A stretch of 33,839 bases of DNA from Kiritimatiellia bacterium (lineage in GTDB: Bacteria; Verrucomicrobiota; Kiritimatiellia; RFP12; UBA1067), in the NCBI GenBank assembly GCA_045220525.1, contig JBGUVV010000195.1, positions 1 to 33,839 of the forward strand, read 5' to 3'. The position numbers and the translations under genes are program-made. Below are positions 13,798-13,977 of the stretch, in pieces. Position 1 is the stretch's first letter. The number at the start of each line of letters is the position of its first letter. The notes under the pieces are model-generated. The model did not search any database. It was not told where the DNA came from and saw only the letters and a list, made by a program, of their open reading frames with translations.

Positions 13798-13977
13798 ATG
13801 AATCTCGTACACGACGATATAATGCTCACACCATCACAAGAGGAAGTTCAGCCGAAGTCTTACACTAAAGCAGAACTATCTAAACTTCGTGAGTTTGTCG
13901 ACATCCTTAAAAAGGACGAGTCGCGCTCTGCTCTTGCCTGTTGGGGTAATTATGACGATTATAACCACGGGTATTGA
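13798..13977 (+). CDS. Unannotated 59-aa ORF; candidate RiPP precursor peptide with the C-terminal core CWGNYDDYNHGY
   Basis: My translation is MNLVHDDIMLTPSQEEVQPKSYTKAELSKLREFVDILKKDESRSALACWGNYDDYNHGY*. It falls just under the track's 60-aa cutoff. An AAAGGA site lies 11 nt upstream. An alternative start at 13822 would give 51 aa. It is on the same strand as the radical-SAM/SPASM gene and ends 98 nt upstream of it. Confidence 0.45.
   Translation: MNLVHDDIMLTPSQEEVQPKSYTKAELSKLREFVDILKKDESRSALACWGNYDDYNHGY

Follow-up and report, generated by a model that had tools for sequence, protein, structure and literature searches.

A conserved leader-plus-core peptide gene beside a radical-SAM/SPASM enzyme in a Kiritimatiellia contig, and the candidate cyclophane-type peptide cassette that it heads

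The short open reading frame and its conservation

The window analysed here is a stretch of 33,839 nucleotides from a Kiritimatiellia bacterium (contig JBGUVV010000195.1 of assembly GCA_045220525.1, positions 1 to 33,839, forward strand). It carries an unannotated short open reading frame (ORF) at 13798..13977 on the plus strand, at the head of a cassette whose order is peptide, hairpin, rSAM1 (a radical S-adenosylmethionine (SAM) enzyme with a SPASM domain), rSAM2 (a second, smaller radical-SAM enzyme), methyltransferase and UvrA-like ATPase, with all genes from the first through the UvrA-like one co-directional. According to the ORF listing and a direct reading of the sequence, the ORF starts with ATG and encodes 59 amino acids before its stop codon, the product being MNLVHDDIMLTPSQEEVQPKSYTKAELSKLREFVDILKKDESRSALACWGNYDDYNHGY. 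Comparison with related loci indicates that it is a true gene for a peptide with leader and core, conserved across loci and linked to the neighbouring radical-SAM/SPASM enzyme. The features of this gene and of its immediate surroundings are the following.

13798..13977, plus strand: putative precursor peptide gene, 59 amino acids and stop, conserved leader at about residues 18-45
13933..13974, plus strand: conserved C-terminal core LACWGNYDDYNHGY, with the triplets WGN, YDD and YNH and then a terminal GY, as placed by the 134-member position table and the list of tails
13781..13786, plus strand: ribosome-binding-site-like AAAGGA, 11 nt upstream of the peptide ATG, read from the sequence
13752..13760, plus strand: extended -10 promoter-like box TGATATAAT upstream of the peptide gene, read directly from the sequence
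14019..14051, plus strand: terminator-like or attenuator hairpin (14019-14041) with a 10-bp stem and a T-rich tail, between the precursor gene and the rSAM1 gene

The size of such an ORF is not significant in itself, since reading frames of at least 30 amino acids are abundant (116 of them overlap window positions 9000..20000); it is conservation that lifts this one above chance. A profile of the rSAM1 protein was used to fetch related loci from genomes and metagenomes, and further loci were obtained by exact look-up. In all 32 loci that offered at least 150 nt upstream of an rSAM1 homologue at least 39% identical, a short co-oriented ORF was found upstream of that homologue, ending in a W-G-[ND]...G-[YW] tail. 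The first-pass annotation, which had been made from the sequence alone, described the ORF as unannotated with a plausible ribosome-binding site, proposed a search for short ORFs with conserved aromatic-rich C-termini upstream of homologous radical-SAM/SPASM genes, and staked its reading on the ORF or its core being conserved in related loci. The start codon and AAAGGA box agree with the first of these statements, and the search turned up exactly such ORFs, with the tail kept throughout the 32 loci.

The conservation was confined to one frame. In tblastn searches of the 42 fetched loci, the peptide frame was matched in 30 at E<1e-3 (best 4e-21), as against none for the overlapping plus-strand frame 13889..14023, none for the antisense ORF 13588..13812 and only two for the antisense ORF 13876..14061, and these antisense and alternative-frame ORFs were rejected as the real gene. 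A profile search with the peptide in a set of 5.8 billion proteins returned at least 165 protein clusters at E ≤ 0.01, with 23 representatives at the 50% identity level; these clusters are unnamed or 'hypothetical', their source names comprising only 'hypothetical protein' and one generic AslB label. The notion of a chance reading frame or a non-coding leader region, with the radical-SAM enzymes acting on something else, could appeal to the sheer number of short ORFs in these 11 kb. Against it stand the amino-acid conservation across phyla in a single frame, a tail that is always directly followed by the stop codon, and the 165 clusters of the protein profile search; judged by these conservation data it is effectively refuted and retains only a vanishingly small probability. 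As expected of the precursor of a peptide that is made on the ribosome and modified after translation (RiPP), the short gene adjoins, is co-oriented with and is co-inherited with its enzyme, and both leader and core are conserved.

Members of the peptide family have a median length of 56 amino acids and consist of a variable N-terminus, a conserved leader and an almost fixed tail that runs up to the stop codon. The leader consensus, QPxxY[ST]xxELxxL[KR]xF[IV]xx[VIL]KND..R, is probably helical, so that the helical-looking charged leader noted at first pass has a conserved counterpart (QPxxY[ST]xxELxxL[KR]xF[IV]) across the family. The tail consensus in the related loci is L-A-C-W-G-[ND]-[HY]-x-[DEN]-[YF]-[STN]-[HKR]-G-[YW]-stop. 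Counted over 134 family members, whose sequences are not phylogenetically independent, its positions are occupied as follows.

Position 1: L
Position 2: A
Position 3: C in 126/134
Position 4: W in 134/134
Position 5: G in 134/134
Position 6: N in 100, D in 34
Position 7: H in 120, Y in 14
Position 8: variable
Position 9: D in 108, E in 13, N in 10, V in 3
Position 10: Y in 119, F in 13, H in 2
Position 11: S, T or N
Position 12: H in 69, K in 51, R in 12
Position 13: G in 131/134
Position 14: Y in 122, W in 12

Aromatic residues thus occupy positions 4, 7 and 10, each followed by a free residue and then a polar one, which yields three contiguous aromatic-X-X triplets, W-G-[ND], [HY]-x-[DEN] and [YF]-x-[HKR], and then a Gly-aromatic end. 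The window tail, CWGNYDDYNHGY, belongs to the minority Tyr-7 form (WGN-Y-DD), His being present at this position in the other 120 members. Positions 7, 10 and 14 exchange only His for Tyr, Tyr for Phe (rarely His) and Tyr for Trp, respectively, and such aromatic-only substitution is what a role as ring donor predicts. Triceptides are defined by aromatic-X-X motifs carrying bonds from the ring to a C-beta, with rings such as HNR (YhhB), HAA, HTK and YDR (ChlB) (PMC11499958), and xenorceptide A2 has the three rings WVN, FAR and WSK (bioRxiv 10.1101/2024.12.16.628070). The residues at the third positions in the present family (N/D, D/E/N and H/K/R) are all known ring partners in triceptides (PMC11499958; bioRxiv 10.1101/2024.12.16.628070). 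The residue pattern therefore fits three tandem aromatic-X-X cyclophane rings of triceptide-like type, to judge from sequence comparison. The first-pass suggestion that these triplets are the substrate of a triceptide-type enzyme is thereby strengthened, the family logo being joined by the YhhB, DynA and ChlB matches of rSAM1 described below. Its companion suggestion, that the Asn residues might be targets of an N-methyltransferase, is disfavoured: Asn-6 is Asp in 34 of the 134 members, and the place of Asn-11 in the window is mostly taken by Ser or Thr.

In a divergent subfamily, the Cys is absent and the tail closes with Gly-Trp, examples being THWGNYHDYTRGW and NDWGNHNEYTRGW; tails such as NDWGNHSEYTRGW also occur. 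The Cys and the terminal Tyr co-vary across the 134 members, which comprise 120 with Cys and Tyr, 6 with Cys and Trp, 6 with Trp and no Cys, and 2 with Tyr and no Cys. Two tandem precursor genes (7559-7741 and 7838-7924) are present in the Selenomonadales locus L006, the second of which has the variant tail ACRGDHADHCNTY with Arg in place of the otherwise invariant Trp, and the peptide tail of locus L008 reads ACWGDHADHCNTY.

A strong hairpin followed by a T-run lies in the equivalent position, between peptide and enzyme gene, in most related loci, with sequences that differ between loci. The fold energy of the window's whole peptide-rSAM1 intergenic stretch is not unusual (z = -0.47), so the argument for the hairpin is one of positional recurrence across loci and not of energy. 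No regulatory RNA was found in the region with Rfam. A consensus promoter scan did not call the extended -10 box at 13752..13760, and no good -35 box was seen there.

Enzymes of the cassette and their distribution

Downstream of the hairpin, the window encodes the following proteins.

14076..15230, plus strand: rSAM1, radical-SAM/SPASM peptide maturase of 384 amino acids without an N-terminal RiPP recognition element (RRE) domain; Pfam Radical_SAM
15217..16101, plus strand: rSAM2, small second radical-SAM enzyme of 294 amino acids, HxsC-like and viperin-like, with five conserved C-terminal Cys
16058..16828, plus strand: class I SAM methyltransferase of MTS / HemK-like fold, with an NPP[LIV] motif
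16803..20597, plus strand: UvrA-like ATP-binding cassette (ABC) ATPase of 1264 amino acids, probable start 16830, with a degenerate third repeat at residues ~1019-1264
20587..21198, minus strand: HExxH...WLYE protein of 203 amino acids, putative gluzincin-type metallopeptidase, convergent here and co-directional in other loci

None of these enzymes reaches the cut-off of any curated family, every NCBIfam hit falling below it, and the peptide has no model at all. rSAM1 combines an N-terminal CX3CX2C motif (C15/C19/C22) with the seven-Cys auxiliary-cluster motif, containing CX2CX5CX3C, that is expected at the C-terminus of a SPASM maturase; these three cysteines and C262, C269, C284, C333, C336, C342, C346 and C365 are invariant among 14 homologues. 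Its best NCBIfam matches are anaerobic sulfatase maturase (3e-58), YhhB (5e-46) and DynA (9e-46), so that after the sulfatase maturase the best full-length matches are to cyclophane synthases. FxsB, AmcB, GrrM/OscB, XyeB, PapB, DarE and QhpD follow at scores far below their cut-offs. The matches to YhhB, DynA, FxsB and XyeB are full-length, the alignment running from the very N-terminus to RRE-less maturases. Against solved structures, full-length alignments were likewise obtained with the anaerobic sulfatase-maturating enzyme (anSME) at 2e-28 and, as second best, with the triceptide synthase ChlB at 6e-21. The bit scores against the curated families of three-residue cyclophane-forming enzymes (3-CyFE) are 157 against a cut-off of 445 for YhhB, 115/370 for FxsB, 114/425 for AmcB, 97/310 for GrrM and 90/450 for XyeB, which places rSAM1, by sequence, as related to the 3-CyFE families and outside all curated ones. 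A published network of cyclophane synthases comprises 5369 enzymes and ~3900 putative triceptide pathways (PMC11499958), and the cluster of rSAM1 may already be included there as an uncharacterised node.

An identity of rSAM1 as an anaerobic sulfatase maturase was considered, given that anSME is its best single match among both families and structures and shares the three-cluster SPASM architecture. It was rejected at 197.5 bits against the TIGR03942 cut-off of 349.45, and no sulfatase gene is present in the cassette. The motif recognised by anSME in sulfatases is C/S-x-P/A-x-R; unlike such substrates, the peptide has no such motif, and the Cys-less subfamily has no Cys at all. The locus more closely resembles the triceptide systems (XyeB/XncB, YhhB, HaaB, HtkB, ChlB, GrrM/OscB and FxsB), which have in common with it a short precursor made of a leader and tandem aromatic-X-X motifs next to an RRE-less SPASM maturase of ~380 amino acids, the use of Trp, His, Tyr and Phe alike for donating the ring, and a third place taken by N, D, K, R or H. 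The three-ring layout WVN, FAR, WSK of xenorceptide A2 resembles the WGN, HxD and Yx[HKR] succession seen here. The present cassette differs in having, besides, a second radical-SAM enzyme of HxsC-like type, a methyltransferase with an NPP[LIV] motif and a UvrA-like ATPase of three repeats, and in having no protease/exporter set of the kind found in XYE clusters. It differs further in the nearly invariant Cys before the Trp and the obligatory C-terminal Gly-aromatic, and its cross-links are predicted only.

The closest family of rSAM2 is HxsC (1.6e-25), and viperin-like enzymes also match. In the metagenome contig L042 (1385-3310), rSAM1 and rSAM2 are fused as a single protein of 641 amino acids (P0109), with the methyltransferase following; this 'Rosetta-stone' fusion supports joint action of the two enzymes. 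The amino-methyltransferase motif of the third enzyme is NPP[L/I/V] and not NPPY in 14 of 14 homologues examined, and its identity as a PrmC/HemK glutamine N5-methyltransferase was rejected on this ground and on a TIGR03534 score of 50.1 against a cut-off of 199.1 bits. The longest-ORF starts of the methyltransferase (16058) and of the UvrA-like gene (16803) overlap the preceding genes. Since homologue alignments begin at internal Met codons just past the upstream stop codons (those of the methyltransferase in tblastn at residues 18-21), the true starts are probably the ATG at 16112 and position 16830, respectively.

The HExxH...WLYE motif of the minus-strand protein is conserved in eight loci. 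No family for this protein, the peptide or a 367-amino-acid upstream ORF was given by Pfam, NCBIfam or PADLOC. An AlphaFold2 (AF2) model of the HExxH protein (mean predicted local distance difference test (pLDDT) score 79.5) has a gluzincin-like fold, and the top Foldseek hits in the PDB are all zincin peptidase domains, namely clostridial collagenases, anthrax lethal factor and PPEP-1 (best E=4e-3, probability ~1.0). The model would make the protein a candidate leader peptidase.

The UvrA-like protein matches TIGR00630 at 1e-155, again below the cut-off, solved UvrA structures at 1e-110 and the echinomycin-resistance protein Ecm16 at 7e-97. At residues 120-260, between the cysteines of the first zinc (Zn) module, no match to the UvrB-binding domain was found, and an insert of ~100 amino acids of unassigned fold sits there instead. 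The extra ~390 C-terminal residues gave no Pfam hit, and an AF2 model of this domain made without an alignment was unusable (mean pLDDT 35), local profile-profile comparison being used in its place. With hhalign and a profile of ten homologues, residues ~1019-1264 proved to repeat residues 258-521 (probability 98.8%, E=1e-16), of which other comparisons had given weaker hints. The repeated unit consists of the Zn module, the insertion / DNA-binding domain and the signature domain, with the ABC signature and Walker B decayed in the third copy. To our knowledge, no UvrA paralogue with a third degenerate Zn-module/insertion/signature repeat has been described.

The complete arrangement of peptide, rSAM1, rSAM2, methyltransferase and UvrA-like gene is found in 11 distinct loci, the named carriers including Roseburia, Lachnospiraceae, Treponema, Proteus vulgaris and Desulfobacterales, with metagenome contigs making up the remainder. 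The cassette thus occurs in Firmicutes, Spirochaetes and Proteobacteria, mostly in gut and rumen bacteria, with flanks that are unrelated from locus to locus. A cultured carrier is Proteus vulgaris PR00166 (locus L005), where the cassette lies between topB and xthA. The UvrA-like gene is linked in 11 of 13 distinct complete loci, and an HExxH gene stands beside 8 of the 11 UvrA-carrying ones, in either orientation. Two loci of Selenomonadales, one of them with the tandem precursors, end after the methyltransferase and have peptide, rSAM1, rSAM2 and methyltransferase without a UvrA-like gene. The two loci of the Cys-less, Gly-Trp form (Bacteroidales L009 7757-9137 and L041 7831-9200) have rSAM1 only. 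From this distribution the peptide and rSAM1 would be the ancestral functional unit, and rSAM2 and the methyltransferase appear to belong to the Cys / Gly-Tyr form, because the Cys-less Gly-Trp subfamily keeps the SPASM enzyme only; the UvrA-like and HExxH genes look like frequent but dispensable add-ons. An uncharacterised protein of 372 amino acids follows the SPASM enzyme in L009. A decayed cassette was seen in L017 (2646-4822), in which the methyltransferase is reduced to a 43-amino-acid match and the UvrA-like protein to ~680 amino acids, while the peptide, both radical-SAM genes and the HExxH gene are kept. No near-identical DNA was found in E. coli genomes; tblastn with rSAM1 against plasmids and phages returned only distant sulfatase-maturase hits or nothing, and viral contigs returned none.

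Possible products and rival readings

The reading best in keeping with these data, to which a probability of about 60% is given, is that the ORF encodes the precursor, with a leader and a core of 12-14 residues, of a ribosomally made radical-SAM-modified peptide, that is, a cyclophane-type RiPP. The chemical steps that follow, and the link to DNA, are what we infer from the conservation, enzyme linkage, residue pattern and domain identities observed. The peptide gene would be transcribed from its own promoter, the downstream hairpin serving as an attenuator that keeps the peptide message above the enzyme messages. rSAM1 would then bind the helical leader without an RRE domain, as in triceptide synthases, and most likely join (by C-C, or C-N / C-O bonds) the ring of the aromatic residue that opens each triplet with the side chain of the residue that closes it. 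With W-G-N, H/Y-x-D and Y-x-H/K/R as triplets, a rigid triceptide-like poly-cyclophane tail with a free C-terminal Gly-Tyr would be produced. In the Cys-containing subfamily, which includes the window, the HxsC-like rSAM2 and the NPP[LIV] methyltransferase would modify the product further, probably at the Cys and/or the C-terminal Tyr; the options include a thioether bond with the conserved Asp/Glu, a reaction at the C-terminal Tyr and the methylation of an amine formed in the process. Where it is present, the HExxH protein would remove the leader, and the UvrA-like ATPase would protect the DNA of the producer from the product, as DrrC and Ecm16 do.

In gene clusters whose products bind DNA, UvrA-like genes that lack a UvrB-binding domain are an established mark of self-resistance (PMC10413001). 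The protein described here resembles DrrC, Ecm16 and MtrX as a UvrA paralogue with both ABC modules and Zn modules, no detectable UvrB-binding domain and a place inside a biosynthetic cassette; it differs in being ~400 amino acids longer through the degenerate third repeat, and the known examples come from actinomycete polyketide or non-ribosomal-peptide clusters. We know of no UvrA-like self-resistance protein linked to a RiPP. By analogy with DrrC and Ecm16, a DNA-directed product would be implied, and the cassette might make a rigid poly-cyclophane aromatic peptide that binds or damages DNA, with the three-repeat UvrA-like ATPase as its guardian or as a partner that senses foreign DNA. This extension is offered tentatively and, as a specific proposal, is unlikely. 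If true, no earlier radical-SAM RiPP would have been directed at DNA, and this one would be a genotoxin or an immune effector built on a peptide that has spread horizontally among gut and rumen anaerobes, with Proteus as cultured carrier.

Several points weigh against the pathway as drawn. The single best family match of rSAM1 is anaerobic sulfatase maturase and not a cyclophane synthase, and every family score is far below its cut-off. The Cys could form a thioether to the conserved Asp/Glu in the style of ranthipeptides or QhpD, the PapB and QhpD models also matching. Enzymes with a (D/N)PP motif typically modify nitrogens of nucleic acids or of Gln amides, and the methyltransferase could serve in immunity and not in tailoring. 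The HExxH gene is missing in 3 of the 11 UvrA-carrying loci, and the Foldseek peptidase hits of its product are weak, with a best E of 4e-3. The absence of an exporter from the cassette is unusual for a secreted antibiotic, and it is only the analogy to UvrA-like proteins of actinomycetes that suggests a link to DNA.

An intracellular anti-phage or anti-plasmid defence with HXS-like logic, in which the radical-SAM pair matures the peptide to an effector or cofactor, the UvrA-like protein scans incoming DNA and the methyltransferase marks self, is considered doubtful. The HXS system (HxsA-D; Nat Commun 2026) is anti-phage and blocks the entry of phage DNA, its HxsB/HxsC pair acting on His-x-Ser motifs (PMC13128918). 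The cassette shares with it a SPASM radical-SAM enzyme paired with a small HxsC-type one and acting on aromatic(His)-x-x motifs: HxsC is the best family of rSAM2, rSAM1 weakly matches HxsB, and the core of the family has an H-x-D/S-type triplet. The scores amount to 89.6 of the 267.9 bits required for HxsC and 55 of 370 for HxsB; moreover, HxsA and HxsD are absent from the window cassette, which adds methyltransferase and UvrA-like genes. PADLOC models of the MADS system also match the methyltransferase (mad2, 9e-18) and the UvrA-like protein (mad3, 9e-64; mad8, 3e-30), yet these matches span generic Rossmann methyltransferase and ABC-ATPase regions. In the MADS preprint, Mad6, Mad7 and Mad8 are mandatory components. 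A relationship to MADS was rejected, since the matches are to a generic ATPase or methyltransferase core and the only mad8-like one is partial and lies inside the UvrA-like protein. The cassette is compact, exporter-less and patchy in occurrence, and here lies in a low-GC island near a ParE toxin, kinases and a DUF4143 protein, all of which would suit a defence system. On the other hand, it has no nuclease or other killing effector, it was not found in viral contigs, phages or plasmids, and several genomes have housekeeping flanks (topB and xthA in Proteus). The UvrA-like gene is, besides, dispensable in Selenomonadales, where the methyltransferase stays with the radical-SAM genes.

A secreted cyclophane antibiotic of darobactin, dynobactin or xenorceptide type, directed at an outer-membrane target such as BamA and with a UvrA-like protein unrelated to its action, is quite improbable. 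The C-terminal aromatic-[ST]-[KRH]-G-aromatic does resemble the W-[TS]-[KR]-S-F of darobactin and type A xenorceptides (bioRxiv 10.1101/2024.12.16.628070), the DynA model matches rSAM1 over its full length, and in DynA and DarE systems, too, it is a SPASM enzyme that links Trp, His and further aromatics within a short core at the C-terminus, whose last residue is aromatic. However, DynA scores 156.5 against a cut-off of 450 bits and DarE 81.7 against 650, and no transporter genes, whether the ABC or HlyD exporters typical of such clusters or a DarBCD-type exporter, were found in any cassette examined. The core differs, the carriers are mostly gut and rumen anaerobes and not Photorhabdus, Xenorhabdus or Yersinia, and a UvrA-like gene linked in most complete loci would be left unexplained. 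Very improbable, finally, is a scaffold for a small redox cofactor or signal in the manner of mycofactocin or pyrroloquinoline quinone (PQQ), in which decarboxylation and cross-linking of the Gly-Tyr would be followed by its release through the HExxH peptidase. Mycofactocin likewise stems from a small peptide that ends in Tyr after small residues beside a radical-SAM enzyme; here the last residue is always aromatic and follows a Gly in 131 of 134 members, an exporter is absent from the cassette, and rSAM2 weakly matches PqqE and MftC. Yet these matches cover the generic radical-SAM core only, at 40-48 bits against cut-offs of 265-381 (39.9/265 for TIGR03962, the MftC model). No homologues of MftB/D/E/F or PqqB/C/D and no linked dependent oxidoreductase were found, the conservation spans 12-14 residues, the whole 12-residue tail and not just the final two, and the UvrA-like protein would have no role. 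The central reading at first pass, in which the ORF encodes a RiPP precursor and the adjacent SPASM enzyme acts on its aromatic-X-X triplets, is upheld by comparative genomics, whereas part of its specific chemical analogies is disfavoured: membership of the darobactin-type or MftC/mycofactocin families is not borne out, all scores being far below the cut-offs and the partner genes absent.

Taken as the precursor of a cyclophane-type RiPP, the ORF would define a family of precursors that has no name and numbers at least 165 clusters, along with the enzymes that accompany it, carried by gut and rumen Firmicutes, spirochaetes and Proteobacteria. Full-text literature gave no hits for the motif strings CWGNH, CWGDH and WGNHSDY, and no relevant paper was found that joins radical SAM or SPASM with UvrA or excinuclease. 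Unusual in the cassette are its second, HxsC-like enzyme, the methyltransferase with the NPP[LIV] motif and the UvrA paralogue with two and a half repeats. The Cys / Gly-Tyr form with rSAM1, rSAM2 and methyltransferase and the Cys-less / Gly-Trp form with rSAM1 alone constitute a natural experiment that could be used to assign new radical-SAM chemistry. The linkage of a RiPP-type cassette to a structurally new UvrA paralogue also provides a testable idea, a DNA-targeting peptide or a peptide-based defence in gut bacteria, and the cultured Proteus strain makes these questions directly addressable.

Surroundings of the cassette in the window

The cassette is regarded as mobile and lies inside a low-GC island of the window at ~12-22 kb, with 41-46% GC as compared with 55-65% in the flanks. 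The Cys-rich orphan ORF of 367 amino acids at 12522..13625 on the minus strand was considered as a member of the cassette and rejected, having no homologue in any related locus. Upstream of the island, window positions 3278-8243 encode a DUF4143 protein, an ADP-ribosylglycohydrolase, an MreB-like fragment, a Ser/Thr kinase and a ParE toxin, a mix that loosely recalls regions of defence genes or mobile elements. Two direct repeats of 74 nt (21540-21613 and 22087-22160), 93% identical, 547 nt apart and in an apparently non-coding stretch, lie at the island's right edge and could be an integration scar or a small repeat element. Farther downstream, ten tandem 42-nt repeats (14-amino-acid units) occupy 23072-23574 within a Ser/Thr-kinase ORF of 613 amino acids (22862..24703, minus strand). 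The annotated end of this ORF overlaps a tRNA-Ser at 24538-24625 on the same strand, and its real start probably lies further downstream.

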